A DNA stretch of 64,000 bases from an uncultured delta proteobacterium (lineage in GTDB: Bacteria > Desulfobacterota > RBG-13-43-22), in assembly GCA_963802945.1 (NCBI GenBank), contig CAWDKY010000015.1:352001-416000 (forward strand). The letters are read 5' to 3'. Shown here one piece after another: positions 2,974 to 63,796 of this stretch. The first letter of the stretch is position 1. Each line of letters starts with the position of its first letter. The translations under genes were made by a program, and so were the position numbers. The notes under the pieces were generated by a model, which saw only the letters and a list, made by a program, of their open reading frames with translations, had not been told where the DNA came from and searched no databases.

Positions 2974-3197
2974 TTTAACTTTGGTAGCACAACCTTGCTT
3001 TTTCTCCTTGACCCTTCATCAGGCTTATTTTATGCTTTAACTATTCCCAAAAGTCCTCACTGCATTGACTGCAGGGGAAGAGAGGATAAACCCCCTGGAT
3101 ATTTAGAAGGGACAACAATTCATTCTATTTCAGGGCTTCCTTTTAGTGAATGGTTTTCAATGAAGCCCTGATAATAAACTTAAGAAGGAGAAAGCAG

Positions 3198-5622: not shown

Positions 5623-5624
5623 TT

Positions 5625-6248
5625 ATGACCCATACATTACACCGGCGAGGATCGGAAAAAAGTTTAGAGAGGGATTATGTCCTGTTGTGCATGGCCGCCA
5701 AGGGGATCAATGAAAAAGGCTCTGAGGAGAAGATGCGGGAGTTTCTGAGGATCAATCTGCGTCATAATCCGGTCAATATTGGGGATATGAGAACAGGCAA
5801 TATGTACAATGTACCCATCGATGAGATCATGAAAAAAGTCACCAGCACGAGCATTGTTCATGGTGTTTTCACCGATCAGGAAACGGTGATGAATGTCCTG
5901 AAGGATCTTAAGAAAGCCGATCTGGGACTGTCGGTCGTGGTCAGCGGTCCTTTCGGCTGTGTGGGAGAGCTTTGCCGGGCCGCCGGACTCCGTCCCCATT
6001 CTGTGGATTACTCAGGGGATATCTGGGGGAAAAGGGATAAATTGCCGTCGGATGAGATACTGGAAGTGACCACCATGTGCGGTCACGCCATGGTGGCAAC
6101 TAACTTGGTGAAGTCCCTGATCGATGAAATAAAAGCCGGGGAGAGAAGCGCCGAGGATGCCGGTAAAGAACTGGCCAGGATCTGTGAATGCGGGATATTC
6201 AACCCGGTCCGTGCAGCTGAACTTTTGAAGGGAATGGCCTCAAAATAA
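5625..6248 (+). CDS. Uncharacterised Cys/His-containing protein
   Basis: Clean 207-aa ORF with GAGGAGG RBS, tightly coupled to the upstream gene; motifs MTHTLHRRG, TTMCGH, ICECGIFNP. Confidence 0.8.
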   Translation: MTHTLHRRGSEKSLERDYVLLCMAAKGINEKGSEEKMREFLRINLRHNPVNIGDMRTGNMYNVPIDEIMKKVTSTSIVHGVFTDQETVMNVLKDLKKADLGLSVVVSGPFGCVGELCRAAGLRPHSVDYSGDIWGKRDKLPSDEILEVTTMCGHAMVATNLVKSLIDEIKAGERSAEDAGKELARICECGIFNPVRAAELLKGMASK

Positions 6249-6353: not shown

Positions 6354-7531
6354 ATGGGTCTGCCATTGGAAGGAATAAGGGTCGTAGATTTTACCCAGTA
6401 TCAACAGGGAACGGTCTGCACGGAGATGCTGGCCGACTGGGGAGCGGATGTAATCAAGATAGAGCCCCGCAATATCGGTGAACCGGGCAGGGGAGGAAAC
6501 GCCTGGGGGCCTAAAGGTGTGCCCGTTTATTTTGAGGCTTATAACCGCAACAAGAGGAGCATGACCATAGACCTTAAGAAAGAGAAGGGCAAGGAGATCG
6601 TCTATAAACTGGTAAAAACAGCAGATCTATTTGCCCAGAACTTCCGCCCTGGTGTGGCCGAACGCCTGGGTTTTGGGTATAAAGCCTTGTCCGAGATCAA
6701 CCCCAGGATTATCTATCTGAGCGGGTCGGGTTTTGGCCTGAAAGGTCCCATGTGGGACCGTCCCGGATTCGATTCCGTGGGCCAGGCCATGGGGGGACTC
6801 ATGAGCATCAACGCCCAGCCCGGTATGACCGAGCATATGGTAGGGACTGGAATCGGCGACCAGACAGGGGGTTTCCTGCTCAGCTGGGGGGCCTTGCTGG
6901 CCTTGATCGATCGTGAACGGACCGGGAAAGGTCAGGAAGTTGATGTTTCTCTGATAGGCAGTGTGATCGCTTTACAAAGTTCGACCTTCCTGGCCCACCT
7001 TTTGACCGGCCATGTCCCAGAAAAACGAAGGGGTCGAATCACCACCACGGTCTTTGCCAGCAGCTTCACAGCCAAGGACGGCAAGTCTTTCATCATCCAG
7101 ACCGTCGGCGCGGAAAAAAGGGACAAGGTCTTTGAACTGGCAGGTCTGGACAAAGACCCCAGGTTTGATACCAAGGAAAAAGGCGCCAAAATGAAGATGA
7201 AATGTTTAAGGCCTTTGATGCCGTCTTTGCCACCAAGACCCGTGATGAATGGCTGAAGATTCTGGTGGAGGCTGATATCGTCTGCGCCCCGGTTTACAGC
7301 TACCCTGAGGTGGCCAGTGATCCTCAGGTGTTGGCCAATGAATATGTTGTTGAGATAAACCACCCGACAGAGGGTTCAGCCAGAATTATCGGTAATCCTA
7401 TCCACCTCAGCCGATGTGAGGCCAGGACCGGCGTAGCCCCTCTATTGGGACAGCATACAGAAGAGATATTTAAAGAGGCAGGATATTCCTCGGAAGAGAT
7501 CGCCGCCTTCAGAAAGGAAGAAGTGATTTGA
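6354..7531 (+). CDS. CoA-transferase family III (CaiB/BaiF/Frc-like), one frameshift near 7190
   Basis: PLEGIRVVDF, GADVIKIEP, NRNKRS, QNFRPG, and C-terminal APLLGQHTEE in the second frame. Confidence 0.92.
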
Positions 7532-9258: not shown

Positions 9259-10515
9259 ATGAACTTTTCCAATGAATACAATAAGGAACAGAAAGAATTC
9301 GCTAAAGAAGTTCGCACCTGGCTGAAGAATAACGTCCCTAAGGGACTCATCAAGCCCAGGAGTATTATGAAGATAAGCCGCGAACAATGGGAGATGCGAC
9401 GCGATCTGTGCCGCAAACTCGGAGAGAAAGGATGGTTGTATCCATCTTATTCACAGGAATACGGGGGGGGCGGCCTTGACGGAGACAAAGCCGCTGTTCT
9501 GTATATTGAGATGGCCAAACAGGAGTTGAGCCTTCCCCCTGTATACGACTCAGGCAAACTGGCGGCACCGACCTTAATGGCCTGTGCAACGGATGAGCAA
9601 AAAAAACGTCTGCTTCCGCCCATACTCAAAGGCGAAGCGATCACCTGGCAGCTTTTCACCGAACCGGAGGCCGGTACGGACGAAGCTAACCAGCAGACCA
9701 ATGCCCTGCGCTCAGTCCAAGAAAAAGATTATTTCATCGTCAACGGCAGTAAAATATTTGTCGGTGGGCTTTACGCCCCACCCGATCAATTTTTGCTTCT
9801 AACCCGAAGCAGTCTTGAAGCACCCAGGCATCAGAACCTGGCCATGTTTCTGGCCCCGGCCAATTTGACCGGTATTCAAATTTATCCGCTTGATCTTTTC
9901 CCAGAGGGCACGCTTGCCCAGGTCTGTTATCAATCCGCGGACAGCGCGCCGGGGGTCAAACATTCCGTATTTTTTGAAGATGTCAAGGTCCATGAATCCT
10001 ACCTGATCGGCGGGGATCAGGACGGCTGGAAAGTCACCAACGCTACCTTGACGGTTGAACATGGAGACAGGGATAGCGACCATGCCGGTACCGGCGCCGC
10101 CTTTATTCCCCAAAATCACCTGGTGGAAAAATTTCTTGACCAGTGCAAAAACAATCCGGAAATAAAGAGCCGGTTACTGGAAAATCCTCATTTGCAAGGG
10201 GACATGGTGGAGGCCTATATTGGCGGTCAGATAGAGAGACTTTTTTATATGCGAAACGCCGGTTTGCCCAGGGCCGGGAGGCGCGCCGCTTATGCGGGAC
10301 CACAAACCAGCTTGTTTACAAAAAATTTCGGCTTAAACATGACGAGTTACCTGTCCCAGGTTCTCGGTCCCTATACTCTGACCAGCGATGAGGAGTGGGG
10401 TCTGGAGGACGGCCTTTTTGAAGTCTGCGCACGAAGCGGCCTTTGTCTGGCACCGGGCGGCACCCCTGAGGCCTTGAAAATCATCATATCCCGGGCCTTG
10501 CGTATCGGAAGGTAG
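9259..10515 (+). CDS. Acyl-CoA dehydrogenase family protein
   Basis: WQLFTEPEAGTD, VNGSKIF, GGTPEALKIIISR. Confidence 0.92.
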   Translation: MNFSNEYNKEQKEFAKEVRTWLKNNVPKGLIKPRSIMKISREQWEMRRDLCRKLGEKGWLYPSYSQEYGGGGLDGDKAAVLYIEMAKQELSLPPVYDSGKLAAPTLMACATDEQKKRLLPPILKGEAITWQLFTEPEAGTDEANQQTNALRSVQEKDYFIVNGSKIFVGGLYAPPDQFLLLTRSSLEAPRHQNLAMFLAPANLTGIQIYPLDLFPEGTLAQVCYQSADSAPGVKHSVFFEDVKVHESYLIGGDQDGWKVTNATLTVEHGDRDSDHAGTGAAFIPQNHLVEKFLDQCKNNPEIKSRLLENPHLQGDMVEAYIGGQIERLFYMRNAGLPRAGRRAAYAGPQTSLFTKNFGLNMTSYLSQVLGPYTLTSDEEWGLEDGLFEVCARSGLCLAPGGTPEALKIIISRALRIGR

Positions 10516-20682: not shown

Positions 20683-21360
20683 ATGAAATACGAATTAAAT
20701 ACATATCATAGGAACACTCCCGATCAAGAATTATTGGATGACCTTAAAAAAGTCGCTGATCAAATTGGAATGGAGAAAATTACAAGGGAACAGTACGATC
20801 AGAAAGGAGAATTTAATTCTGGAACATTAATCAAGCGATTTGGGACTTGGAATAAAACTTTAGAAAAGGCGGGTTTAGCAGTAACAGTAAAACAAAATAT
20901 TCCAGAAAAAGAACTATTTGATAATATTGAGGCAGTATGGATTGCGCTTGGGCGACAACCTTTATACGTGGAAATGAAGCCTCCTCTTTCAAGATGTTGG
21001 CCAAAACCTTATGAGAAAAGATTCGGGTCATGGCGAAAAGCACTTGAAGCCTTTGTTGAGTATGTTAATTCCGATAAGGACGAAAATCAAGAAACGGCAG
21101 AAAATAGGCAAGATGAAAAATATTTCGATGCAGTTGAAACAGAATTTAAACATAAAACAAAGAGGAATATTAGTGAAAGATTAAAAGTCAAAGTATTAAT
21201 GAGGGATGGTAACAAATGCAAGCTTTGTGGCATCTCCGTAACTGGTGAAAACATTCACTTTGATCATATAAAACCTTGGTCTAAAGGAGGCGAAACAGTT
21301 TTAGAAAATATTCAAGTATTATGTGCACGACATAATTTAGCCAAAGGTAATATGGAATAA
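20683..21360 (+). CDS. HNH endonuclease with N-terminal repeats, cassette-like
   Basis: Two KRFGxW repeats, then CKLC...HFDHIKPWSKGG...NIQVLCARHN; AT-rich relative to its neighbours. Confidence 0.9.
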   Translation: MKYELNTYHRNTPDQELLDDLKKVADQIGMEKITREQYDQKGEFNSGTLIKRFGTWNKTLEKAGLAVTVKQNIPEKELFDNIEAVWIALGRQPLYVEMKPPLSRCWPKPYEKRFGSWRKALEAFVEYVNSDKDENQETAENRQDEKYFDAVETEFKHKTKRNISERLKVKVLMRDGNKCKLCGISVTGENIHFDHIKPWSKGGETVLENIQVLCARHNLAKGNME

Positions 21361-34104: not shown

Positions 34105-34278
34105 AAGCCTGCTCCTATGTTTTCACTTTTTGGCTTCTGTTGGCTCAAGAAGGTCCTTCTATCCTTCAGCTAATCGGCCTAAACCTCCTTAAATCCCTTG
34201 GCTACCCCTATTTTTTCTCCTTGACCGCTCTTTCGTTTTATTTTATACTCTTACCATTCAAAAGCAAAGAATTATCAA

Positions 34279-34446
34279 ATGGGCGGTAACGAATTTCATC
34301 TGGCTTTTAAGGTGGATGATCTTGCAGCATCGTATGCTCCTCCTGAAACGATGGACTGCATCTGTTTTGAAGACAAGGCAATGGGCATTTACTTCATCCA
34401 CGATCCGGATGATTATTGGATTGAAATTATCCTTCAAAAGAAATAG
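34279..34446 (+). pseudogene. VOC/glyoxalase family C-terminal fragment
   Basis: Manual translation: GGNEFHLAFKVDDL...CICFEDKAMGIYFIHDPDDYWIEI. Confidence 0.7.
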
Positions 34447-34519
34447 AAATATAACCATTGGTGCCGATCACTATGGTCCGTATGCGATCGGATGAATAAT
34501 AAATAAAGGAGGCAATCCG

Positions 34520-35143
34520 ATGAAGAAGTCAATTTTTAAAATGTTATTTTTGACATTGGTGATTATCACACCTGTTTCAGTAATGGCCCAGGTAAGCGTG
34601 AATGTCAATATTCCTCTGCCTCCGCCGATTATCTTTCCGGCGCCACCCGAGATGGTAGTAATACCTGAAACGTATGTCTATGCTGTGCCTGATGTGCAAG
34701 AGGAAATATTTTTTTACAACGGCTGGTGGTGGCGTCCATGGGAAGGGCGCTGGTACCGCTCACGGTACTACGACAGAGATTGGGTGTATTTTAATCATGT
34801 CCCTCATTTCTATTTGAACATACCCCCGAGCTGGAGGGATGATTATCGACATCATCGCTGGAGAGGGCAACGTTGGGAGCACCAGCGGATACATTATTCC
34901 GAACTGCAAAGCAACTGGCGTGATTGGCAAAAAGACAGGCGTTGGGAAAAGCAAAACACCTGGGGTGTCCAGGGCCTGCAGCCAAGACCGCAAGGGCCGC
35001 AGTCAAAACCACAGGGCCTGCAGCCAAGGCCACAAGGGCCGCAGTCAAAACCACAGGTCATACAGCCAAAACCACTGGTCAGGCAGCAGCCAAGACCACT
35101 GGTCAGGCAGCCAAAACCACTGGGACATAAACCAGAAAAGTAA
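34520..35143 (+). CDS. Secreted hypothetical protein with a Trp/Tyr-rich domain and Pro/Gln repeat tail
   Basis: AAGGAGG RBS, signal peptide, FFYNGWWWRPWEGRWY, tandem QGLQPRPQGPQSKP repeats. Confidence 0.85.
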   Translation: MKKSIFKMLFLTLVIITPVSVMAQVSVNVNIPLPPPIIFPAPPEMVVIPETYVYAVPDVQEEIFFYNGWWWRPWEGRWYRSRYYDRDWVYFNHVPHFYLNIPPSWRDDYRHHRWRGQRWEHQRIHYSELQSNWRDWQKDRRWEKQNTWGVQGLQPRPQGPQSKPQGLQPRPQGPQSKPQVIQPKPLVRQQPRPLVRQPKPLGHKPEK

Positions 35144-46779: not shown

Positions 46780-46826
46780 GGGAACGGTTCTGATTATTTA
46801 TTATTTCACCTTAAAGAAACCGTCCC
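46780..46826 (+). repeat. 49-bp hairpin repeat family A, copy R1
   Basis: gggaacggttctgattatttattatttcaccttaaagaaaccgtccc. Confidence 0.92.
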
Positions 46827-51400: not shown

Positions 51401-51448
51401 GGAGCCGGTCCTGATTATTTATTGTTTCGCCTTAAAGAGAACCTTCCC
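51401..51448 (+). repeat. Family A repeat R3
   Basis: ggagccggtcctgattatttattgtttcgccttaaagagaaccttccc. Confidence 0.9.
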
Positions 51449-51529: not shown

Positions 51530-53020
51530 TCATCCGTTCGGTCCCTTGGTCACCGGTTTGCCTATGTCCCTGACAATGGCCTTCAATAAGGCCAGGTAAA
51601 GCAAACGGTGAAAAGGATACAGGACATACCAATAGAGGATCCCACCCAACCCTCGGGGTAAAAAGCGGGAGATCTGCTCAAGCTCGGTATTGCCATCCGG
51701 AAGAGGCCGGATTTTGAATTCCAGGAGGGCTTCGCCGGGCAGCTTCATTTCAGAGACTAATATTAAATGAACCAAAGGTGTTATTTCCAATACTCGCCAA
51801 AAATCCAGGGCTTCGCCGGGCAGTAAATCAGTCGGATGGCGTCTTCCTCTCCTGAAACCGACACCCCCGACCAGGCGGTCAACCCAACCCCTGATTTTCC
51901 AGAGAATGTTTTCAGAATACCAGGCTTTCCCGCCCCTGCCTTGAATTACAGATTTCCAGACCTCTTCCGGATGGGCTTTAAAGCGAACACGAAAGCTCAT
52001 TTCCAGAATAGTCCCACCGGCATACTGAGTATCCCCGCAATAGTACCATTCCTGGGGAACAATAGCGCCGGCATCCATCCAGCAGGTATCAATTCGTTGC
52101 TGATCAATGCGGTCCAAGGCCAAGCGAATGGTTTGTCGGCAGTCCAGTAATTCTTGGGGGATGATGTCCCGGATCCGCTGGTCCTGGCAAGTAACTGGAT
52201 TACGCAATCCTTCAGTCAGAGGTCTGGCGATGGAAGAAGGGATCGGGGTGAGGAGATGGATCCAATAAGAACTAAACCTTGGGGAAAGGATTGGGATCGG
52301 AATAATCCACCGCTTGTGAAGATGGGCCTCTTGGGCATAGAGCTGAAAAAGTTTCCGATAGGTTACCACATCAGGCCCGCAAATATCAAAGTTCTCACCT
52401 AAAACCTCATCATGCTCCAGACACCCCTGCAGATAATTCAAGACGTTTCGGATGGCGATGGGTTGAACCGGAGTATTCACCCAGCGGGGGGCGAGCATAA
52501 TGGGTAACCGATCCCCAAGATAACGGACCAACTCAAAAGAAGCACTCCCGGATCCCAAAATCATGGCGGCCCGCAGGAAGGTAGCCGGCACCTGGCCGGA
52601 CTGTAAAATCCGGGCCACCTCCTGCCGGGAGCGCAGGTGTTCACTGAGCCGGCGATCATCGCGACCGCCCAATCCCCCCAGATAGATGATCCGATTTAAA
52701 CCGGCCTTGGCAGCCGCTTCAACCATATTTTGGGCTGCCCGCCGGTCGGTCTTGGTATACCCTTTAGGGTCGGCATTCATGGAGTGGACCAGATAGAAGG
52801 CAGCCCAGCATCCAGCCACAGCCTGATTTAAGGATTCTTGGTTCAAGACATCCCCGGTTGCCAACTCGACTAAGGGATGATTCCCCCAGGGACGCCCTTT
52901 TAATTTAGCCGCCGATCGCCCTAGAGCACGAACCTTATAACCGGCTCTTAAAAGTTGGGGAACCAGCCTTCCCCCCACATATCCTGTCGCTCCGGTAACT
53001 AATACAGGTTGGGTGTGCAC
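51530..53020 (-). CDS. NAD(P)-dependent oxidoreductase with DUF2867 (YbjT-like)
   Basis: VTGATGYVGGRL, YLVHSM, GSGSASFE, LDFWRV, EMKLPGEA, PRGLGG.LYWY. Confidence 0.9.
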   Translation of the reverse strand: MHTQPVLVTGATGYVGGRLVPQLLRAGYKVRALGRSAAKLKGRPWGNHPLVELATGDVLNQESLNQAVAGCWAAFYLVHSMNADPKGYTKTDRRAAQNMVEAAAKAGLNRIIYLGGLGGRDDRRLSEHLRSRQEVARILQSGQVPATFLRAAMILGSGSASFELVRYLGDRLPIMLAPRWVNTPVQPIAIRNVLNYLQGCLEHDEVLGENFDICGPDVVTYRKLFQLYAQEAHLHKRWIIPIPILSPRFSSYWIHLLTPIPSSIARPLTEGLRNPVTCQDQRIRDIIPQELLDCRQTIRLALDRIDQQRIDTCWMDAGAIVPQEWYYCGDTQYAGGTILEMSFRVRFKAHPEEVWKSVIQGRGGKAWYSENILWKIRGWVDRLVGGVGFRRGRRHPTDLLPGEALDFWRVLEITPLVHLILVSEMKLPGEALLEFKIRPLPDGNTELEQISRFLPRGLGGILYWYVLYPFHRLLYLALLKAIVRDIGKPVTKGPNG

Positions 53021-53053
53021 GAAGATCTCCAATAATTTTTGTGGAACATGGGG

Positions 53054-53790
53054 TCAAGTTTGGTACAGACCGCCATTGACCTGGATGGTTTGTCCGGTCA
53101 TATATCCATTGCCAACCAGCATAAGGGCCACATCGGCCACCTCTTCCACGGTCCCGAAACGACCGACCGGAATCCGGTCCGGTCTGGCCTTGATGCCATC
53201 ACTCATCATATCGGTGATGATCAGGGCCGGGCATATGGCATTGACCGTGATCCCCTCCTTGAATAACCGGGAAGCGTAGGAATGGGTGAGGCCCAGGATA
53301 CCGGCCTTGGAGGCCGCATAATGAGGGCCCACAACCCCGCCGACCTGGGCGGCGGTCGAGGACAGGTTGATGATCCTTCCCCATCGCTGGGACCGAAGGC
53401 CCGGCAAAACCGCTTGGGTCACCAGGTAACAGGATTTCAGATTGATCCTGAGCGTTTCGTCCCAGACTTCTTCGGTCATTTCCTCAAGGCCCCGGGGTTT
53501 GGCAATCCCGGCATTGTTTATAAGGATGGATATGGGTCCCAGTTCCATCTCGATGGTTTCTGACCAATCGGCTCACCTCTTCCGCCTGGCTGACATCGGC
53601 CTGTACGGCCAGACTGCGACGGCCAAGACTTTTGATCTCCGAACTCACCTCCTGGGCCTCGTTTTCATGGGTTTTAAAATTGACCGCCACATCAGCACCG
53701 GCTTTGGCCAAGGACACCGCAATGGCCCGGCCGATTCCCCGACTGGCCCCGGTCACTAAAGCGATCCGGCCGCTTATTTCCGAATGTCAT
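53054..53790 (-). CDS. SDR (FabG-like) oxidoreductase, frameshifted
   Basis: TGASRGIG, NNAG and YAASK lie in separate frames; indels near 53780 and 53555. Confidence 0.87.
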
Positions 53791-53813
53791 CTTTTCATCC
53801 CTTCTTTATTGAA

Positions 53814-54203
53814 TTAGGCTTTCGTGAACAGCTCGGGGTTGGCGTATTTGGTAATGTCAATAGCGAAATGGACAAACAAATCCTTTTGGCCCCCGATGGG
53901 GAGCCAATAGGAATCCACGAACCGTTTACTGGGGGCATAATAGCCGACGGATCTTTTGCCCACCCCTTCTTCCAAAGCCGAATTTCCCAGACACTGTTTA
54001 TGAATACAATCATCTCCGGATAATTGATAGCATTTCATTCCCAAGCGAACCCCTCTGTCTCTGGCTGTTTGGTTGAAATCTACAATAGTCCGATCTTTTC
54101 TTAAGAGGAAAACAGGAGTAGGAAACATATCCCACATCAAATGAAAGGCTTTTAAAATCTCCGGATTGACCTCAATATTGTCAGGCTCTTGACTCTTTTC
54201 CAT
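53814..54203 (-). CDS. Stand-alone PAS-like small protein, copy 1
   Basis: VFLLRKDRTIVDFN...KCY...CIHKQC; near-identical to 56846-57235. Confidence 0.78.
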   Translation of the reverse strand: MEKSQEPDNIEVNPEILKAFHLMWDMFPTPVFLLRKDRTIVDFNQTARDRGVRLGMKCYQLSGDDCIHKQCLGNSALEEGVGKRSVGYYAPSKRFVDSYWLPIGGQKDLFVHFAIDITKYANPELFTKA

Positions 54204-54244
54204 TTTTGTTCCTTCCAATGCTTACCGACCATATAAAAATTAAA

Positions 54245-54292
54245 GGGGATGGTTCTGATTATTTATTATTTCGCCTTAAAGAGAACCGTCCC
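54245..54292 (+). repeat. Family A repeat R4
   Basis: ggggatggttctgattatttattatttcgccttaaagagaaccgtccc. Confidence 0.93.
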
Positions 54293-54436
54293 ATTTATCC
54301 ACAAGATCTCAAATAAAAAAATGATAACACTCCAATTTGTTGAAGTCAAATTACCTTGACAGGCCATATTTTCTCCCTCTATACTTCACTCACCCAAAAG
54401 AAAATCCAAATCAAAGATAAAGAAAGAGAAAATAAC

Positions 54437-55522
54437 GTGAACCAGATTGATCCAATTTACCAGGAATTAGCGGAAAAAATGGGGAGTCCCGATTCAAAAA
54501 TATTACCCAGAGTACTCCAGAGGCTGGCTACTCTGGAACAGGCCCAAATCCTGCGCGAAATGCCGGCTTCCTTTGAGGAAATCGCCAAAAAGTTAGGCTT
54601 GAGCTTGGAAACAGTGGAAAAGCTAATGCAAGGGCCGTTTGAAAATGGGGTTATTTTCCATGGCAAGCATGGTTGGCGTATGCCGGCAAACTGGTTTTTC
54701 TTACACGACATGGCTGGGTCATCCGAGTCCAAGTATGACGATGACGTATTTTTTGATTTGATGATGGATGTGCATAATGAGAACATAGAACGGCTGGTAA
54801 AACGATTAAAAGAAGCCAAGGAACCGACTCTGAAGCAAGTGCAGAGAGTAGTTCCCGACTGGAAAGCCATCCAGGGTATACCCGGCGTTCTACCACATGA
54901 AAACACATTCGTAGGCTTTAAAGATGTATCACCGGTCGTTTCGATTAATTGCGCCTGCAAGAGGCTCTACCGTGACAGGAAGTGCAAAGATGATATCCCT
55001 CTCCGAGTATGCTTTACTGCCGGCAGATCCGGAAAGGTGGCTCTCGAACGCGGACTCGGGAGGGAGATCAACCACGATGAATATTTGGAGATTCAGGAGC
55101 GAGCTACCGAATATGGACTCGTTCATCTTTATCCGAATAATTCCAAAATACCCGACGGGATATGTAACTGCCATCATTGCTGTTGCGGTCAATTCTTGAT
55201 CAGTGCCCATACGAAGCCGAATTTTAATCTGCTCTCGATTGCCAAGAGTCGTTTCATTGCGGAAGTGGACCAGGAGAAGTGCAGGGGTTGCAGGAAGTGC
55301 GTGGATAAGAGATGCCCGGTCGGTGCGGCTCAGATGAAATTTTCCCCTGAATATGGTGAGGACCGTGCCTTTATTGATACGGAAGAATGCATTGGCTGCG
55401 GACTCTGTGTGCTGACCTGCCCAACTGGGGCCCGTAGGATGGAGTTAGTCAGACCGCCGGACCATATTCCGGAACCCCGTAACTTTTCTTTATCTGAAAT
55501 AGTTGCTGATTTAGTGTCCTAA
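54437..55522 (+). CDS. 4Fe-4S binding protein with N-terminal HTH-like region
   Basis: NCACK, ICNCHHCCC, CRGCRKCVDKRCP, CIGCGLCVLTCP. Confidence 0.87.
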   Translation: MNQIDPIYQELAEKMGSPDSKILPRVLQRLATLEQAQILREMPASFEEIAKKLGLSLETVEKLMQGPFENGVIFHGKHGWRMPANWFFLHDMAGSSESKYDDDVFFDLMMDVHNENIERLVKRLKEAKEPTLKQVQRVVPDWKAIQGIPGVLPHENTFVGFKDVSPVVSINCACKRLYRDRKCKDDIPLRVCFTAGRSGKVALERGLGREINHDEYLEIQERATEYGLVHLYPNNSKIPDGICNCHHCCCGQFLISAHTKPNFNLLSIAKSRFIAEVDQEKCRGCRKCVDKRCPVGAAQMKFSPEYGEDRAFIDTEECIGCGLCVLTCPTGARRMELVRPPDHIPEPRNFSLSEIVADLVS

Positions 55523-55635
55523 ATTTGGTGCGAACACGACTTATTTCTTCAAAAATTCGAGGGACCATATTTATTTCCAATTTAAAAATTAAATTAGTAT
55601 GGATGTCCCCCGATTTAGTCCCGCTTTAAATTAAA

Positions 55636-55684
55636 GGGGACGGTTCTGATTATTTATTCTTTCGCCTTAAAGACAACCGTCCCC
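55636..55684 (+). repeat. Family A repeat R5
   Basis: ggggacggttctgattatttattctttcgccttaaagacaaccgtcccc. Confidence 0.93.
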
Positions 55685-55718
55685 TTTATCTTTTTCCCGA
55701 TGTCGTGGAATTCAACAA

Positions 55719-56468
55719 TCAATCTTTAAATCCGAATATTGCACTTTGAATGATTCTGGTTGCCATGATCATTTGTTCTGCCTTCATATAGGCACCACTC
55801 ATTCTATGTGTCTCTTTTCTATATTCTCTTGCATGTTCTTCTGACCAGAAGAAAACACACTCAGTTCAGAATGAATCGATAATACTATCGTCTTTGAGTT
55901 TGAATAAATCTATATCCGGTACAAAGATTACCGGTTCGCATCCTCCGTCCTTGACCTTATAGCGAAGATCACTGTCAATCTCGATTTCCATCGGACAAGA
56001 GCAGTGGGCACATTCGGTTTCAATTTGTACCATCAGGTGTTCGTTTCGTAATTTCCCTTGCACGAAGGGCGTTGCAAATGCATCTGCCGCTCAGGCGGCA
56101 TACAATTTTTCACCTGTGCTAAAAGAAATTTTGTGTGGGGTTTTATCAACCGTGACCGGATAGGCCCACACCACATCTCCCTTTCTGTTTCTATAGAGGA
56201 AGGTCATGCGCTTTTCCAGATAATCCAATGCGGTTTTAACACCATCAACCGAAAAACCAATCTCGTTCGATATGAATTCCGGGGATAAAGGCTTACTTTG
56301 ACGCGGGAGTTCTCTTACCACGAAATGATGAATCAGACGATATTCCTCGGATAGAGCGCCTTGTTCTTTTTCAAATTTTCTTCTTCCTTTAGCTATTTGT
56401 TTCTGCCATAAAAATGGCGGGACTTTAATTATATACCGCCACATTCCAAGCATGAGTTTATTACTCAC
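55719..56468 (-). CDS. MerB-like organometallic lyase, probable selenoprotein with two in-frame UGA (249 aa)
   Basis: A single frame read through TGA 56091-56093 (LYAA-U-AAD) and TGA 55866-55868 (DSF-U-TECVFFWSEEHA) mirrors MerB LYAWCALD and SFCCHVHFFAS; WAYP...TPH and CAHC are also present. Confidence 0.85.
55829..55860 (-). promoter_or_regulatory. Bacterial SECIS-like hairpin after the second UGA
   Basis: UGA-ACUGAGUGUGUU-UUCUUCU-GGUC-AGAAGAA: 7-bp stem with a GGUC loop starting 12 nt after the UGA, extendable by UGUGUU/AACAUG pairing. Confidence 0.7.
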
Positions 56469-56620
56469 AGAAATTTTCCTTTCAATCTATTTGAGGTTTC
56501 AAATGTTTAGTCGCATAAAATTTCAGCTAACCTGCCGCGCCAATGACCCACCCTTGGCCCTTTTCCAATTTTAAATGATATCGGAACCTAAAGTAGAACA
56601 ACGGTCTTGTTTAATTAATT

Positions 56621-56667
56621 GGGAGGATTCTGATTATTTATTATTTCGCCTTAAAGAGAACCACCCC
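56621..56667 (+). repeat. Family A repeat R6
   Basis: gggaggattctgattatttattatttcgccttaaagagaaccacccc. Confidence 0.9.
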
Positions 56668-56845
56668 ATTTATTCTATGCCAAATATAATTGGGAATAAA
56701 ATATCGATTAGCTCCTGGCATCGCTGTTCTGCTTAAACCGTCATACCCTGAATGGAATTTCAATCTGTTGTCCCGGTCCGACCCTTATTTGATTATTGAA
56801 ATCTCAGTTATGTCAACAGAATTTTCAAGGTAACCTTAAATTGGA

Positions 56846-57235
56846 TTAGGCCTTCGTGAACAGCTCGGGGTTGGCGTATTTGGTAATGTCAATAGCGAAA
56901 TGGACAAACAAATCCTTTTGGCCCCCGATGGGGAGCCAATAGGAATCCACGAACCGTTTACTGGGGGCATAATAGCCGACGGATCTTTTGCCCACCCCTT
57001 CTTCCAAAGCCGAATTTCCCAGACACTGCTTATGAATACAATCATCCCCGGATAATTGATAGCATTTCGTACCCAAACGAACCCCTCTGTCTTTGGCTGT
57101 TTGGTTGAAATCTACAATAGTCCGATCTTTTCTTAAGAGGAAAACAGAAGTGGGAAACATATCCCACATCAAATGAAAGGCTTTTAAAATCTCCGGACTG
57201 ACCTCAATATTGTCCGGCTCTTGACTCTTTTCCAT
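56846..57235 (-). CDS. Stand-alone PAS-like small protein, copy 2
   Basis: Differs from copy 1 at 4 of 129 residues. Confidence 0.78.
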   Translation of the reverse strand: MEKSQEPDNIEVSPEILKAFHLMWDMFPTSVFLLRKDRTIVDFNQTAKDRGVRLGTKCYQLSGDDCIHKQCLGNSALEEGVGKRSVGYYAPSKRFVDSYWLPIGGQKDLFVHFAIDITKYANPELFTKA

Positions 57236-57342: not shown

Positions 57343-57385
57343 GGATTACAGATTATTTATTTTTTCACCTTAAAGAGAACACCAC
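57343..57385 (+). repeat. Family A repeat R7 (degenerate)
   Basis: gattatttattttttcaccttaaagagaacacc, flanked on both sides by the aattaag(t/g)aaactgtcccccg motif. Confidence 0.8.
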
Positions 57386-57468: not shown

Positions 57469-58506
57469 TTATTGCTTTGTTCTAAATTCCTTTAACATCG
57501 TACACTCAACGAGCTTATCCAGATTCTGTAGTGTAAACACCTTCCCCCGTGTTGCCAAGATTATCCTTTTCATATCTTCCCGCCGGACCCCGAAACCGCG
57601 GCCTGCGATGCATGCGATGACTTCGTACTTCGGCTTTCCCTCTGACTGTCCTTCCATACTCAGCGTACCCAGGCGTTGAATGCGGGCGACTTTGTCACGC
57701 GCCGTACCATCGTCCTCGGTTATTTTCGCTTCAATGATCGCCTGTGGATTGAATTCACTGGGAATAATGAAATCAGGTGTCTGATCAAAACCTTGAATTT
57801 TCTGTGCCCTTTTTGTTTTCCGGTAGGTGATACCTGCCTTGCTTAACACATCCTCAATTGCCGATTCCAGACTGTCTCCGATAAGATCGCTCACGGAGTC
57901 CCGGTGACCCGCGAAGGGTCTGCCAAGGAACCGCTCATAGAGCAGCATGGCATAAGGAACCCCGATATCTGCAAGTGATCTTATACCATCCAGACCTGTT
58001 CTCGTATCGGCCTTGTCAAGCCGATGTATTTTGTTCCGTGCCACATTCGGTACGTTCTTTTTAAGAAACTCACACGCGGTTACGATCAAGGCATTCAGCC
58101 GTTCCGCGCTCAGGCTGCTGATCTTAAGAGGTGTTATCGGTGCCAGCCGGATATCCCGATCAAGCGTACGAACGAAACCTTGGGTGACCACGATTTTTGT
58201 ATGCTGAGTGGCGATATAAGCCCACTCCGGCGGTGTGAAACCCAAAATGGTACGAATAACAATGACCGATACAGGCACGGCCTTAACGCAATCCATGACC
58301 ACCTCGGGTGTCAGGGTACGAAAACCGCCTGTTGCCTGTTTCAACGCTTCGTATCCTTTTTCAAACACTGGATATTCGACGAATCCATCACCTTTTGGCA
58401 TGATAAGAAATTCTGACTCAAGACAAGAAAATATCGCTGTCACATACTGATCAGGATCAGCCTGCACGTCCTCAAAAGGAACTTCAAAAGAAAATTTCAT
58501 CATCAT
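57469..58506 (-). CDS. PD-(D/E)XK nuclease, putative restriction endonuclease
   Basis: GDSLE...TPDFIIP...IIEAK motif; overlaps the 3' end of the methyltransferase gene. Confidence 0.72.
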   Translation of the reverse strand: MMMKFSFEVPFEDVQADPDQYVTAIFSCLESEFLIMPKGDGFVEYPVFEKGYEALKQATGGFRTLTPEVVMDCVKAVPVSVIVIRTILGFTPPEWAYIATQHTKIVVTQGFVRTLDRDIRLAPITPLKISSLSAERLNALIVTACEFLKKNVPNVARNKIHRLDKADTRTGLDGIRSLADIGVPYAMLLYERFLGRPFAGHRDSVSDLIGDSLESAIEDVLSKAGITYRKTKRAQKIQGFDQTPDFIIPSEFNPQAIIEAKITEDDGTARDKVARIQRLGTLSMEGQSEGKPKYEVIACIAGRGFGVRREDMKRIILATRGKVFTLQNLDKLVECTMLKEFRTKQ

Positions 58507-60694
58507 CCGCTCCATATCGTTTTGACTTTTCCCGTACAACGGAGATCTTGACCTGCTCAAGGTGTTCCGTCTCTTCGCTAACATGCCGTCCGACAGCCTC
58601 TAGTCCACCGAATTCCTCGATCTTCGAAACAAGTGCTGCTGTTTTTTCTTGAACCGGTCTTGTATTGTCCCAAGTATGGCGAAGGTGCCACACCGCGAGC
58701 CGTGTAAAATGACCATAGATAATGCAGCGAACATCACCGCGTGTTTCCTTTACGCCCGCCTGGCGAAGGTTTCCCACATCATCCCTCACCAGGTCAGCAA
58801 AAGCCATGGGAGTATTAGCTAACCATCGGGCCGGTACGGAGCCGGTGCTTCGACAAACGAAGACCGTATCGACAATAGATGAACCAGTGCCGCTGATATG
58901 GATCGAAGCCCCCATCTCGGCAGGGCAAGGTAACGATGCGGAACAGACCAAGCTGGAATCGAGCATTGCAATAGCGATCGGATAATAGGCTTCGAGACTA
59001 TTGTGATGATAGGTAAACACCATCGGATGGCCGGGCTTTAAGGCTTGCGCCATTTTGCGGAACACGACCGAAAGTCCTTCCGTAAAATAATCGAGCCCCC
59101 GCTTCATATTAACGTTGCCGGTCAATTCCTGTTTGTCGCGCGTCGTACCTCGCGCAAATGCGGGATCGCCCGTACCCACGAGCTTGCGCAGCCATACATA
59201 GCAGAAATCCATCAACTCGGCATACTGCACATTGCTGTAATATGGCGGGTCAGTGAATACCGCATCCACTGACCTAGGTTGAAGGTCCGCTTCCATGGAG
59301 CTTTGGCTAAGAAGCCGCACCTGGCGTCTGATAGGTGGGGAGGTTCCGTTTTTCTGGTCCCCGATCCATTCACCACGAACAGGGACCTGAATCTTGCGGC
59401 CATGTTCGTGCCGTATCTCAAAAGGCGCATCGCAATAAGCTTTGGCTTTATAATATTTTTCGATAATATTGGCCCAGCCGCCGCTCCCCACGTTCATACC
59501 CCCGCCATTTATGATGCCGAGAAAGTTCGACTCGCACTGTACGAGCCCTATAGGGAAACCATGGACTGAAAAGATGTCAAGAGACTTTAGCGCCATTGAA
59601 TCATACCTGCAGAGCATATTCTGATAACGGAGCAGGTCCGAAAGGTTGGTTGCAAGTGCGTTCCGCACACGCTCATCAGAGACATCCGCGATGGCCCGGC
59701 AGCTCAATTCCAGCCCGAGGAGCTGGCGCAAATTGAACATCTCACGATACTTCTGGTACCCCCATCTATGGAGCCGTGCAGTCTCATCGCCACCCAATAT
59801 AATATCATCCGGCACAAACAAGGTCTTCATGCTATTCAACCTGTTTGTGGCCTCCGTATATTTGGCCAGATCGGTTCGCGAGGGCTTCTTAAAGAACCTG
59901 CCCTCGTGCTGTGGTTTGCATTTTTTACAGTGATACTCCATGGCGTACATCCGATGAGTTGGTGGATGCTCGGGCTTGAAGGAGTAAAAGTTTGGCTTGC
60001 CGCAGTGTTTGCACTCGTATTTGCTCCTCTTTGCTGGACCATCAACTAGAATTCGTTCGCCGCATGACTTGCACTTGCCCGGTCGATGTCGATCTTTTAC
60101 TCCGTTCAATTCCCCGCAGGACGCGCACACATATATGTTCTCAGGATGTCGTTTGTCCTCCGCAAGCAGGTACCCAGGAAAAAGATCATTCGCCTTGCCG
60201 CAGTTGGCGCAGGTATGCTGTTTTACCCAGAGGAAATATTTTACATGTGCCTTTCTTGATCCGCACTCAAGACAGGTTGTATGATATAAGCTCCCGATAT
60301 TTTGTTCCAACCCGCTGACAAGCTCATCCGCTGCTTTACGATAGGCCTTTAAGTCCAGGTGTTCAATCTCTTGCCGCACGATCCAGTAGGCCATTGGGTT
60401 GATGTCATAGCCGATCACATCGCATCCAATGCGGTTTGCTTCAACGATAGGGGTACCTCCGCCCATGAAGGGATCGACCACGACAAGGCCGGAGAGGTTA
60501 TTGGAAGAGTAGAAAGTGTCCTGCAGCGGTTTGTTTACAAACTCCGAGAGAAGAAGCCCACGGAAAAGCGTACCCGGTCGCCGCGCAAACCACTTATGCA
60601 CAGCGATAATAGGCCGGTAATTCTGCTGAATTTGCTTTTCATGCAAAGCCAGGGAAGAGATAAATGGTATGTCGAATTTTTTTTCAATGGACAT
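58484..60694 (-). CDS. Amino-DNA methyltransferase (DUF1156-like) with multiple CxxC motifs
   Basis: HKWFARR, motif I DPFMGGG, motif IV TDPPY, six CxxC pairs between the motifs. Confidence 0.88.
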   Translation of the reverse strand: MSIEKKFDIPFISSLALHEKQIQQNYRPIIAVHKWFARRPGTLFRGLLLSEFVNKPLQDTFYSSNNLSGLVVVDPFMGGGTPIVEANRIGCDVIGYDINPMAYWIVRQEIEHLDLKAYRKAADELVSGLEQNIGSLYHTTCLECGSRKAHVKYFLWVKQHTCANCGKANDLFPGYLLAEDKRHPENIYVCASCGELNGVKDRHRPGKCKSCGERILVDGPAKRSKYECKHCGKPNFYSFKPEHPPTHRMYAMEYHCKKCKPQHEGRFFKKPSRTDLAKYTEATNRLNSMKTLFVPDDIILGGDETARLHRWGYQKYREMFNLRQLLGLELSCRAIADVSDERVRNALATNLSDLLRYQNMLCRYDSMALKSLDIFSVHGFPIGLVQCESNFLGIINGGGMNVGSGGWANIIEKYYKAKAYCDAPFEIRHEHGRKIQVPVRGEWIGDQKNGTSPPIRRQVRLLSQSSMEADLQPRSVDAVFTDPPYYSNVQYAELMDFCYVWLRKLVGTGDPAFARGTTRDKQELTGNVNMKRGLDYFTEGLSVVFRKMAQALKPGHPMVFTYHHNSLEAYYPIAIAMLDSSLVCSASLPCPAEMGASIHISGTGSSIVDTVFVCRSTGSVPARWLANTPMAFADLVRDDVGNLRQAGVKETRGDVRCIIYGHFTRLAVWHLRHTWDNTRPVQEKTAALVSKIEEFGGLEAVGRHVSEETEHLEQVKISVVREKSKRYGADDDEIFF

Positions 60695-61067
60695 TGGAAG
60701 TAAGGAAATGTGAGGCTGTCGTTTATTGAAAGAGAGTACATTATTTGCGGGTTAAATGCAAGAGTGTTGAGGTTTATCGAGAAAACTGGCCAAAAAAGAT
60801 CGTTCGGGTTAAAATTAATGAGGAACTTCCATGATGAATTTCCGCAAAGCACCCTGAGAACGAATTTCCCTAACGTTGTTTATACTCTTCCCATCAAAAA
60901 GCTAGTCTTTATCAAAAATACAGTCTGTATAAAATAGGAAACACAGACTGTTCCCCTCTATATACAAAAGTTGGATCAGGTCTTGGAATATAAGCTTTTC
61001 CTTTCAGATTCCTAAACCGTCTTGAAGTTAGTAAGTCTTTATTGATAAATCAAGACCTCTTCCTCCG

Positions 61068-62400
61068 TCACTGTAATATGGGATGTGGCCATAGTTTTAA
61101 AGCATACGGGAAAAGATACTTTGCTCGTTCAACTATAGATTGTTCATCCCATTCAGCTATATTGTAGAAATAATGATTTAGCATAAGAGAAGAATGTAAT
61201 AATTCGGTTTTTTTCGGAATCAAAGGGGCCGTTACTAAGGGCCGTATTTAACGGCTAAGTAACAATGGTCAAGTTTCCTACAGTTTGAATTATTTTGTTT
61301 CTGTATTGAACTTTCTCTTTTATTCTATCCCATGTTTCTGCTTTTTTAACATCGGACGAATAATACCAATCGTCTGTCATGTCGGGCTCAATACTTTCTC
61401 CTTCCAATTTATAATTTGCAGCCCATTTTTGGGGCATAATATGTTCTACCGATGCTTGATCGATAGTTAATGTTTCAGACTTTACTGATCTCAATCTATC
61501 TTCAATCATTCTCATGATGGTCACTAATTGTTGACTGCTTAGATTTCTGTATATTGGTGCATTATGCCATCGTTCAGTAAATGCTTTGTCATCCGGCCAT
61601 TTCTGGTCTCCCCCTTTCCTTGAAGAAGCAATTCCCTTAATCGTTCTCGTGAAATCCCTTCCTTTCTCAATTTACTAACAATTTCTACAAAGAAAATATT
61701 GTACTCTTTTGTCATTTTACTGCAAATAAGTCTTCTAACAATAAACGATTCAAGATCATTTAAACTAAATATTAGATCATCCTTGTCAAAACCGGACTCT
61801 TCAAATAAATATATTACGAGAGGATATACCGTTGAGACATCCCATATTTTCAATCTCCTTGCAAAATCACTGAAATCATCATCACTGGTTGGACCTTCAA
61901 GTAAGTAACGGTATCGCCTTCCATATTGGTTAAAATCAGAGAGTTCATCTTTAACTGTTGCATATGGCTTCGCAAGAGTTATCCAGTCTTTATATTCCAA
62001 ATGAACCCTTTTTGAATCAATGATTTGTCCTTTCTTTGATGAAAGGAATACTCGTGTAACTACATCCAAATGGGACGACCACTGATTCCCTCTTCTGATT
62101 GTTTGATCCCAAAATGACTCTTCAAAATACTTCCAATAATCTTCATAAAGCTTATCTCGATCCTCTATTCCTTGTTCGGCTCTCATGAAAACAAAACTTC
62201 TTAATAGGTCGGATTGACTGAGCGGTTTACCTTGTGAATTAAGGGAATGAAATATTTCTTGAGAGTTATCATTATCGTCGAGCAATATCTCGACAACGGC
62301 AAAATCATCCTTGAGTACTCCAAAAACTTCCATTAATATATCTTCGACAGAATAATTTTCCTCTTCTACTGCCATCATGGAATTAAAAGGAATATACTGG
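61068..62400 (-). pseudogene. GmrSD-like DUF262/DUF1524 protein, truncated and decayed
   Basis: IFHSLNSQGKPLSQSDLLR, SVEHIMPQ, GNLT, LSN; in-frame stop at 61255, frameshifts, N-terminus replaced by IS30 sequence. Confidence 0.82.
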
Positions 62401-63238
62401 TACGATTTCACACAACCCCGGGCCATTGAGCGGCGTCATAAAGCCCGGCATTATCGCCGGCATGATCACCGTACGCTGGTTGAATATGTTGAAGCTAAAA
62501 TCCGTATCGAATGGCCTCCGGAAGTTATTGCTGCTCACCTAAAGCTTGATCACCCAAACGATAAAACCATGCGTATCTGCCAGGAAACTATTTATCGGTG
62601 GATATTTCAAGATGCTCAACAAGGTGGCGATCTCTACTGCTATCAGAGACGCCGTCACAAAAAACGCCGCAAACAAAGACGCTATGGCTCGGGAAGACGT
62701 TTTATCCCTGGGCGTGTTTCCATTGATCAACGTCCATCCCTGGTTGATTTACGCCAACGGTTTGGGGACTGGGAAGGGGACACGCTGGAAGGTGGAAAAG
62801 GAAAAGGGGGCCTGGCCACTCATGTCGAGCGTAAAGGCCGTTATCTATTGGCAGCCAAGCTCTCGGACAAGACCTCCAACACCATGACTCAGCAAAGCAT
62901 TAAATCCTTTCGGAAAGCTCCCCGGACCCTACGCCATACCCTCACCGTTGATAATGGTAAAGAATTTTCTAATTTCAAAGAGCTCGAAAATAAAACCGGG
63001 TTAAAAGTCTATTTCGCAGACCCCTATGCAGCTTGGCAGCGGGGAATCAATGAAAATACAAATGGTCTGTTAAGACAATATTTCCCAAAAGGAACTGATT
63101 TCCAAAAGATATCGGAAAAAGAGATTGCTTTTGTCGTTAAAAAACTAAATAATCGCCCCAGAAAATGTCTCCACTACCAGACCCCTCATGCGGTCTTCTG
63201 TCAGGCTCTTAGTGGTGCACTTTGAAGTAGAATCTGCC
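62395..63238 (+). mobile_element. IS30-family element, 5'-truncated (transposase stop at 63225)
   Basis: [58 protein letters not shown]; right end gtgcactttgaagtagaatctgcc; N-terminal HTH and left end not seen. Confidence 0.92.
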
Positions 63239-63427
63239 TAATATAATTACCATTGAGCCCAAACCTCCCCAATACAATATATCTGACTAAGGCTGTGCAG
63301 TAAGGAACAAGAGGTGTTTTATCGGGTGGATCTTTTGAGATATGGATCTGGGCCATGAATCTCCTCAAGATCTTCAGGAAAGTTTTTGGTAAGAATAAGA
63401 ATGAAAGGAATTATAGAATATAACTGG

Positions 63428-63796
63428 CTAATTTGCAAAGAAATATTTTAAATGCAGGTGGTCCGCTATTTGTGCCAGCTTCTTATCAAGGGTCCAGAGA
63501 GATACGCCCGTCAATACAGCGGAGGCCAGAAGATGAACATCCACGTATCCCAACCCTTTCCCCATTAACCGGTTGTCTTCTATAAATGCCAACACTTCTT
63601 CGTGCTCGGCTACGATACTTATGGGTAACAATTCCAGGTACGAAAGGATGACCGGCCTATTCTTAAGATTACCGCAGGCCAGCTCACCTAAAATAAACGG
63701 ATGGCACAGAACTCTTCCATCATTGAGCAGGGCTGCAAGCTCGGCACTTCCCTTCCGTAGATGGGTAACCCAGACCGAGGTATCGACCAGAACCAT
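63428..63796 (-). CDS. vapC: PIN-domain toxin
   Basis: MVLVDTSVW, GELACG, GYVDVHLL, LWTLDKKL. Confidence 0.92.
   Translation of the reverse strand: MVLVDTSVWVTHLRKGSAELAALLNDGRVLCHPFILGELACGNLKNRPVILSYLELLPISIVAEHEEVLAFIEDNRLMGKGLGYVDVHLLASAVLTGVSLWTLDKKLAQIADHLHLKYFFAN

Follow-up and report, generated by a model that had tools for sequence, protein, structure and literature searches.

A MerB-like gene with in-frame UGA codons at both catalytic cysteine positions, a probable double selenoprotein of uncultured anaerobes

Gene layout and membership of the MerB family

The stretch analysed here, hereafter the window, comprises 64,000 nucleotides from an uncultured delta proteobacterium (GenBank assembly GCA_963802945.1, contig CAWDKY010000015.1, positions 352,001 to 416,000 of the forward strand), and carries on its minus strand a single copy of a gene that, when read through two internal UGA codons, encodes a relative of the lyase MerB. 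A first-pass annotation of the sequence had proposed that both UGA codons specify selenocysteine (Sec), replacing the two catalytic cysteines of MerB. The features that define the gene are as follows (the asterisk in each context is the UGA).

56468..55719, minus strand: coding sequence of the putative MerB-like double selenoprotein, GTG start at 56468-56466, 249 codons, TGA stop, two internal UGA codons
56091..56093, minus strand: UGA codon 126, read as Sec, context LYAA*AADAF, aligned with MerB Cys96
56082..56084, minus strand: codon for Asp129 (GAT), aligned with the proton-shuttle Asp99 of MerB (U-x-x-D) in the alignment with Escherichia coli MerB
55866..55868, minus strand: UGA codon 201, read as Sec, context DSF*TECVFFWSEEHA, aligned with MerB Cys159
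55719..55721, minus strand: terminal TGA, a real stop after ...FGFKD; relatives end at the equivalent site with TAA, TAG or TGA

Open reading frame (ORF) prediction had split the gene into two: a 125-aa piece at 56091..56468 and a 65-aa piece at 55866..56063 that begins at an internal GTG. A stop-to-stop scan that ignored TGA gave segments of 131, 74, 48 and 10 codons, showing that the stretch between the two internal TGA codons is truly 74 codons long and is followed by a tail of 48 codons. Frame translation bore out the earlier claim that the two pieces and this tail share one frame and are separated only by TGA. The start codon is aligned as ATG or GTG in 77 of 80 related loci (described below). 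The G+C content of the gene is 0.413, compared with 0.483 for the window. A promoter scan was uninformative, returning 2 sites where 5.7 were expected.

The read-through protein matches the Pfam MerB family (PF03243) at 52.8 bits against a cut-off of 27 (5e-14), which upholds the family assignment made at first pass. The match spans residues 107-235 (profile positions 3-119 of 126) and therefore crosses both UGA codons. Among solved structures the best match of the single sequence is MerB2 (5c17; E = 0.0028). A profile built from 74 family members matches the same protein more strongly (1.4e-6, aligned over residues 58-235), together with the E. coli MerB chains 3f2g, 1s6l, 3fn8 and 5c0t (1e-5 to 2.5e-4). 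MerB residue numbers used here follow the first-pass annotation and the available portion of the preprint on SaoL, a MerB-like protein considered below (10.1101/2022.07.06.499078).

In these alignments U126 falls on the Cys of LYAWCALD or LFAWCA (Cys96) in the solved MerB chains, D129 on Asp99, the invariant C153 on the Cys taken as Cys117, and U201 on the Cys of SFC (Cys159). All three positions of the Cys96/Asp99/Cys159 catalytic triad thus align, with the Asp kept in 81 of 81 sequences and both Cys replaced by putative Sec, and the MerB core is conserved throughout the family alignment. The implied chemistry is analogous to that of MerB, although a strict reading of the lyase's defining Cys, Asp and Cys residues would leave the protein outside. 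The original placement of the two UGA codons at the Cys96 and Cys159 positions, with Asp99 retained, is consistent with these data. Membership of the MerB-fold family, apart from both SaoL and MerB proper, is well supported by sequence comparison.

Both UGA codons are conserved in related genomes

A scan of one genome per species returned 373 pattern matches, 331 of which encode a relative of the window gene. The best 80 of these 331 were retained, and counts out of 81 refer to those 80 loci plus the window. The 80 loci are contigs of metagenome-assembled genomes, mostly from Thermodesulfobacteriota (Syntrophales 19, Desulfobacterales 12, Desulfomonilales 3, and others); three others come from Nitrospirota, and a few further phyla are represented by one bin each. 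Their identity to the window protein ranges from 51 to 83%, which shows that they are not copies of one contaminant sequence.

Codons 126 and 201 are TGA in the window and in 80 of 80 related loci, a coincidence that exceeds chance, and codon 129 is GAY in 81 of 81. The query used in the scan carried Cys at both Sec positions and so favoured Cys forms in the ranking; close relatives with Cys at both positions therefore appear to be absent among the best 80. Mean identity to the window protein (n=80) is 56.3% for residues 1-125, 62.7% for residues 127-200 and 61.5% for residues 202-249, demonstrating that conservation stops at neither UGA; the first-pass annotation had named an end of conservation at the first UGA as an outcome that would speak against its proposal.

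Synonymous codon freezing marks a hairpin downstream of each UGA

Bacterial Sec insertion requires a selenocysteine insertion sequence (SECIS), with a G-bearing apical loop situated just downstream of the UGA. Consensus folds of the family place a hairpin with a G-containing loop downstream of each internal UGA, inside the coding sequence.

56054..56070, minus strand: SECIS-like hairpin 1, CCCUU (56069-56065), loop CGUGC, AAGGG (56059-56055); encodes P-F-V-Q-G
55832..55857, minus strand: SECIS-like hairpin 2, UUCUUCU (55853-55847), loop GGUC, AGAAGAA (55842-55836), with three outer pairs; encodes V-F-F-W-S-E-E-H

The strongest SECIS signal is the freezing of synonymous codons. Considering columns with one dominant residue, synonymous entropy is close to zero only at codons 134-138 and 206-211, which lie in the two hairpins. 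Within codons 134-138 Pro is CCC in 80 of 81 sequences, while TTC, GTG and GGG are each used in 81 of 81. Within codons 206-211 TTC occurs twice in 81/81 and GAA in 81/81, followed by a second Glu codon that is GAA in 71 and GAG in 9. Elsewhere in the alignment conserved Pro, Val, Gly, Phe and Glu codons draw on all of their synonyms. The conserved FFWSEE and PFVQG motifs are in part RNA motifs, and the two hairpins illustrate clearly the constraint that SECIS structure places on a protein sequence.

The hairpin that follows the second UGA is exactly as first described, with a 7-bp stem, a GGUC loop and a core that begins 12 nt past the UGA; the consensus fold extends it to ten pairs. At its closing pair, 65 of the 81 sequences have U-A, 12 have C-G, 3 have U-G and one has A-A. 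Wherever C-G is present, a Trp to Arg replacement (UGG to CGG) is accompanied by a silent UCA to UCG change in the next codon, such that 12 of 81 sequences have undergone a compensatory switch from U-A to C-G, with the three U-G sequences as intermediates. Pairing holds in 99.3% of cells, compared with 40-63% when the partners are slid by one to three columns, and the covariation score was reached by none of 500 shuffles.

For the first UGA the first-pass annotation had offered two weaker hairpins, UUGCA/UGCAA and CCCUU/AAGGG. Both can be drawn; only the latter has comparative support. Its consensus, (G)CCCUU / AAGGG(C) with loop CGUGC, begins approximately 20 nt past the UGA, and pairing likewise drops when the partners are slid. 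The outer pair (24-40) is G-C in 65 of 81 sequences, U-A in 6 and unpaired in 10; in the window it is G-A, leaving a stem of five pairs. The UUGCA/UGCAA alternative displays no two-sided change and has one pair unpaired in 27 of 79 distinct rows, and was rejected in favour of CCCUU/AAGGG. A further candidate with the first UGA in its loop (GCCGC/GCGGC), picked up on the opposite strand by a terminator scan, was dismissed as a by-product of Ala codons, as its sole wobble-wobble pair is formed in 46 of 81 sequences.

Taken together, the TGA pair in 80 of 80 loci and the selection acting on the SECIS-like hairpins uphold the earlier proposal that both cysteines are recoded, and make it a well-supported reading of the comparative data that the gene encodes a real double selenoprotein with Sec at both catalytic Cys positions of MerB.

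A proposed bis-selenolate lyase and the points that weigh against it

We consider the product to be, probably, a cytoplasmic MerB-fold enzyme of 249 residues that cleaves organometals and in which both metal-binding Cys are Sec. In the proposed mechanism SelB carrying Sec-tRNA would bind each hairpin in turn and insert Sec at U126 and U201, while the third UGA, which lacks such a hairpin, would end translation. The two Sec, 75 residues apart in the sequence, would be brought together by the fold, and their selenolates would hold the metal of an organometallic compound, with methyl- or aryl-mercury as the default candidate. By analogy with the MerB mechanism Asp129 would donate the proton that breaks the carbon-metal bond. 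The structural Cys (Cys117) and the proton-shuttle Asp (Asp99) of MerB appear to be retained. Compared with thiolates, selenolates would be expected to bind soft metals more tightly and to be ionised at lower pH.

Several observations weigh against this interpretation. There is no MerA to unload Hg(II) from a bis-selenolate site that would hold it very tightly, making turnover as a mercury lyase questionable and raising the possibility that the true substrate is another organometal(loid). The difficulty of Hg(II) release could be met by a small-molecule acceptor, by another organometal(loid) as substrate, or if the protein were a trap and not a catalyst. The scores of the read-through protein lie far under the NCBIfam MerB equivalog cut-offs (47.7 against 193 for MerB and 41 against 200 for lyase_MerB; NF009710, NF033555), and the protein falls below every NCBIfam cut-off. 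No selA, selB, selD or tRNA-Sec gene was found in the 64-kb window, nor was any other convincing selenoprotein gene found there. Single-sequence folds of the 63 nt after each UGA are no better than those of shuffled sequences (z = +0.53 and -0.17), so that support for the hairpins is comparative and not thermodynamic. At gathering thresholds no Rfam family matched in the window. Covariation is limited to one pair per hairpin, the rest being invariance, which on its own is silent on structure. Finally, Trp occupies both Sec positions in 42 of the 112 relatives from a protein database, a discrepancy addressed below.

Two TGA-joined frames elsewhere in the window were tried as selenoproteins and matched no selenoprotein family. 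One, at 34193-35143, was set aside on that ground. The other, at 4896-6248 on the plus strand, consists of a 238-aa ORF with a 4Fe-4S dicluster domain, a single TGA and a same-frame 207-aa ORF of no known family, and may be two genes or one that is recoded.

The most serious rival accepts the two Sec residues and the MerB fold, and holds that the protein is not a lyase at all: its Sec-x-x-Asp...Sec site would act as a trap or chaperone of very high affinity for soft metals (Hg, Cd, Cu, Ag), or else as a redox centre based on a low-potential diselenide. The lack of a MerA, MerT or MerP partner to unload Hg(II) fits this view, as do the MerR-family genes found upstream of some relatives, which are nearest to metal-responsive types, all below cut-off. 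MerB sites are, in addition, reported to bind other metals in the part of the SaoL preprint available to us (10.1101/2022.07.06.499078). Conversely, the proton-shuttle Asp is invariant (81/81) and the whole MerB core is conserved, a pattern that fits catalysis better, and a binding protein has no obvious need for the full fold and Cys117. We regard a non-lyase role as unlikely, although it is the alternative that survives best.

Genomic neighbourhood

The Pfam scan covered the 52 longest non-overlapping ORFs of the window (out of 90 ORFs of at least 120 aa). Among these 52 there was no match to mer genes, SAO genes or the Sec machinery. The convergent neighbour of the MerB-like gene (54356-55522) encodes a 388-aa protein with a 4Fe-4S dicluster domain, and the upstream neighbour (56846-57235) is a 129-aa ORF of no known family.

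In the related genomes, ORFs within 5 kb of the gene were clustered across the 80 loci; in 74 of these the contig extends 500 nt or more upstream of the gene. A same-strand MarR gene precedes the MerB-like gene in 23 of 80 loci, in 19 of them within approximately 100 nt. A MerR-family gene (~190 aa) adjoins on the same strand in 20 of 80 (19 upstream, 1 downstream), and a 4HBT thioesterase gene adjoins in 11 of 80 (7 downstream, 4 upstream). The other 31 upstream neighbours are heterogeneous. MerA, MerT and MerP are not recurrent neighbours within 5 kb in the 80 loci, where single-locus neighbours were not all scanned, and SAO genes are likewise not among the recurrent neighbours in these loci. 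The absence of a mer operon around the gene, noted at first pass, is therefore seen both among the 52 window ORFs and among the recurrent neighbours of its relatives. These data suggest a stand-alone gene, often with its own regulator, that is probably of an inducible, detoxification type.

The adjoining MerR-family proteins score nearest to ZntR, CueR, CadR/PbrR and MerR, although below every cut-off. The 20 regulators (loci L014, L025 and 18 others) are for the most part encoded upstream, separated from the MerB-like gene by approximately 50-90 nt, and have in common a conserved C-terminal half (roughly residues 110-180) to which no Pfam model applies. The mercury site of MerR consists of three Cys; these proteins lack that site and contain a single conserved Cys.

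Two other regions of the window were noted. The stretch at 57469-63796, which adjoins the locus, has the appearance of a defence or mobile region and includes a PIN-domain gene, a DUF1156-type DNA methyltransferase (58484-60694) adjacent to a 371-aa protein with weak similarity to PD-(D/E)XK nucleases, a fragment resembling the GmrSD type IV methyl-directed restriction enzyme (61539-62426), and an overlapping rve integrase fragment (62377-63225). At 20683-21360 (plus strand) a free-standing HNH endonuclease with homing-endonuclease-associated repeats lies among metabolic genes.

Palindromic repeats around the gene

The first-pass annotation had described the gene as one complete unit bounded by two repeats, suggestive of a mobile selenoprotein. 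The repeat copies are listed below.

55628..55690, plus strand: 63-nt palindromic repeat, just downstream of the gene, genome-specific and outside the gene family
56612..56674, plus strand: copy of the same 63-nt palindromic repeat, upstream of the gene
46792-46821, 51413-51442, 54237-54299 and 57351-57380, plus strand: other copies of the repeat

The repeat, of approximately 63 nt, is a palindrome with a 14-bp stem and a loop of about 30 nt (z = -3.5 to -4.0). Its six copies span 46.8-57.4 kb of the window in one orientation, mostly past gene ends and beside unrelated genes, and the repeat was found in 0 of 80 related loci. The copies look like elements of the repetitive extragenic palindromic (REP) type, or terminators shared across this genome, and we conclude that they are intergenic elements peculiar to this genome, which do not delimit a cassette.

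Beyond the repeat copies on both of its sides, a mobile cassette (the R5-R6 unit of the first-pass annotation) would account for the low G+C content of the gene and for a duplication of approximately 400 nt, 97% identical (minus-strand positions 53808-54218 and 56840-57235), which flanks a segment of 3 kb containing the MerB-like gene together with that for the 4Fe-4S protein; at a distance of 1-7 kb there are also a restriction-modification region and a fragment of an integrase gene. The duplication carries paralogous small ORFs of 134 and 129 aa with a Cys- and His-rich middle, which matched no family in Pfam, NCBIfam or PADLOC. These features are outweighed by the distribution of the repeat, whose single orientation beside unrelated genes is typical of intergenic REP-like hairpins, and by the lack of any transposase or recombinase inside the unit. 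No close relatives of the gene were found on 72,556 plasmids, which yielded two distant matches of ~27% identity, or among 50,697 phage records. A quick maximum-likelihood gene tree is largely clustered by taxon: the window gene belongs to a starred clade of 13 rows that also contains Desulfobacterales-type sequences, and the Nitrospirota group together in a single clade. The proposal of a repeat-bounded mobile unit is thus not sustained, and we consider a cassette very unlikely.

Truncated, tryptophan and cysteine forms in protein databases

A set of 5.8 billion proteins contained 112 relatives, which were sorted by local BLAST. A set of 1.84 billion representatives gave 500 matches at E <= 0.001, of which the best 150 were listed and 149 aligned by BLAST. 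Residues at the two Sec positions (126/201) are given below for both sets.

112 relatives: stop just short of codon 126, 59; W/W, 42; Cys at 126 and stop just short of 201, 4; G/L, 1; unclassified, 6
Best 150 of 500: stop short of 126, 88; Cys at 126 and stop short of 201, 8; middle pieces that stop short of 201, 8; S/C, 3; G/C, 3; C-terminal pieces with W at 201, 3; W/W, 1; E/L, 1; S/R, 1; G/G, 1; C-terminal piece with R at 201, 1; other, 31

The predominance of proteins that end just before codon 126 (59 of 112, and 88 among the best 150) is as expected, since gene callers stop at UGA. The first-pass annotation had named Trp at these positions in homologues as a finding that would count against Sec, and in protein databases such homologues do appear, as 42 of the 112 are W/W; at the DNA level, by contrast, all 80 of 80 loci carry TGA and not TGG. 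Gene callers for metagenomes select from a fixed range of models, one of which uses translation table 4, and the W/W proteins are most likely artefacts of table-4 gene calling. This view draws on four points: the gene-caller models, the presence of TGA in every one of the 80 loci, the origin of all W/W proteins on contigs shorter than 3 kb, whereas truncated forms come from contigs of up to 755 kb, and the C-terminal extensions of some W/W proteins (P0002-P0051 and others), which contain further W and are sometimes W-rich. A comparison of W/W proteins with TGA-bearing loci gave no exact match, the best case being 87% identical, and the table-4 origin is therefore only a probable one.

The W/W entries, together with the single G/L protein, are also what a reassigned code would predict, in which the UGA codons would be read as Trp (or Gly). 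Such a code is hard to reconcile with the use of TGA as the terminator of the gene itself, of many of its relatives and of 18 among the 41 window ORFs that have Pfam support, several of these 18 with complete C-terminal domain matches; TGA is a normal stop in the window and the standard code is in use. The short contigs and W-bearing extensions of the W/W proteins also speak against reassignment, as do the coincidence of the two positions with the catalytic Cys of MerB, the existence of Cys homologues and the selection acting on the hairpins, leaving this explanation highly improbable.

Homologues with Cys at the Sec positions were found. Cys occupies position 126 in 12 database proteins, all of which end just before 201, and P0120 aligns without gaps. 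At position 201 Cys is present in P0116, which has Ser at 126 and gives a gapless alignment of 247 residues at 38% identity, and in P0119; four further cases hinge on gap placement. The solved MerB chains also have Cys at this position. It follows that one subfamily is Cys/Sec and a more distant one Ser/Cys, with the clade of the window gene Sec/Sec, where each Sec is read from sequence.

The idea that a MerB gene has decayed here through two nonsense mutations, or that there are three separate small genes, has a negligible chance of being correct: broken genes are present in this assembly or genome, where several other window genes look frameshifted, but no frameshifts were seen in the gene, its Pfam domain spans both TGA codons, identity is no lower downstream, and two codon-matched nonsense codons at identical positions in intact frames of 80 different species (80/80 loci) exclude decay.

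Four other regions of the window contain seemingly frameshifted or truncated genes (52935-53813 on the minus strand; 6354-7500, 3150-4875 and 9259-10515 on the plus strand), encoding a short-chain dehydrogenase, a family III CoA-transferase, a thiamine pyrophosphate (TPP) enzyme and an acyl-CoA dehydrogenase. Their domain halves lie in different frames or read into nonsense, which points to assembly indels or pseudogenes and not to TGA recoding; two of them, 52935-53813 and 6354-7500, were tried as recoded genes and found to contain frameshifts instead.

Possible significance

A broader reading, which we offer tentatively, is that the gene represents a widespread and unannotated family of anaerobes (Syntrophales, Desulfobacterales, Desulfomonilales and Nitrospirota) that, in anoxic habitats, uses a bis-selenolate site to demethylate methylmercury independently of mer operons or to cleave other organometal(loid)s. 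The guilds of Thermodesulfobacteriota and Nitrospirota concerned also methylate mercury, and HgcA has been reported as a selenoprotein in most cases. If the reading were true, both the making and the breaking of methylmercury would be selenium-dependent. For strict anaerobes without mer operons, the family offers a concrete candidate for an organometal-cleaving gene. Degradation of methylmercury in anoxic sediments would become a testable question, and selenium supply would be linked to mercury cycling.

The data also bear on annotation. Gene callers stop at the first UGA, and the family is therefore represented mainly by 'hypothetical proteins' of 125 residues that would be missed in merB surveys. 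Members are systematically mis-annotated, mostly by being cut at that codon, while the Trp/Trp entries mislead routine checks for Sec by making selenoproteins resemble Trp proteins.

Comparison with known MerB-like proteins and double selenoproteins

The closest precedent is SaoL (NCBIfam NF040728; Haft and Gwadz), described as a MerB-like organometallic lyase and selenoprotein in the available part of its preprint (10.1101/2022.07.06.499078). The statement in the first-pass annotation that Sec-containing MerB-like families have been reported is therefore correct. SaoL and the window gene have in common the MerB fold (PF03243), Sec at the Cys159 position (predicted in the window protein), the Asp99 equivalent, strict-anaerobe hosts that include some Deltaproteobacteria, and database entries that are usually truncated at UGA. 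According to the same portion of the preprint, SaoL is a protein of ~213 aa whose one Sec directly follows a Cys (the CU dipeptide) and which retains Cys where MerB has Cys96, and is encoded in a nine-gene SAO operon that includes an ABC transporter, whereas in the window family both positions appear to be Sec and the window gene has no SAO genes nearby. The window protein also has an extra N-terminal segment of ~40 residues and lacks the CU motif: the residue preceding U201 is Phe in 80 of 81 sequences, Leu in one and Cys in none, and all 81 sequences have U at the first site. With the SaoL model the protein reaches 41.5 bits, where the cut-off is 140, and the match covers residues 64-166 only. 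With no CU motif, no SAO or mer operon, and scores below the NCBIfam cut-offs, the window gene is distinct from SaoL.

MerB of mer operons (EC 4.99.1.2; 1s6l, 3f0p, 3f2g) differs in other ways. Its Cys96/Asp99/Cys117/Cys159 correspond to U, D, C and U in the window protein as read here, identity is ~27% or less, and Cys160 is not conserved. Unlike mer-operon MerB, the window gene is not accompanied by a merA, merT, merP, merR operon, and its hosts are anaerobic Thermodesulfobacteriota and Nitrospirota, in contrast to the aerobic resistance plasmids that carry MerB. MerB2 (5c17), the closest solved structure by sequence, has Cys and not Sec at both catalytic positions; we take it to be part of a Gram-positive mer locus.

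Bacterial double selenoproteins are also known, and include MbdU and FtrB (NCBIfam; 2026 review PMC13188914, in the part available). These proteins share with the window protein two UGA-encoded Sec and discovery by comparative genomics; their folds are unrelated, and the FtrB model matched no better than chance (12.4 bits, cut-off 160; E = 0.1). In the motifs listed in that portion of the review (CU, UxxU, UxxxxU) the Sec residues are close in sequence, in contrast to the wide spacing predicted here.

SaoL (CU, one Sec) is the sole MerB-like entry in the family table of the 2026 review, as far as the accessible text extends (PMC13188914). It is likewise the sole Sec-containing relative of MerB in the literature covered, which includes the accessible part of a 2022 review (PMC9312934); an earlier mention is possible in subscription papers or supplements, which lay outside that coverage. 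The search terms do not occur in the BSepDB paper (PMC13326102). These comparisons suggest that the window gene belongs to a second, separate lineage of Sec-containing MerB proteins, which would be the first to have selenium at both metal-binding positions.

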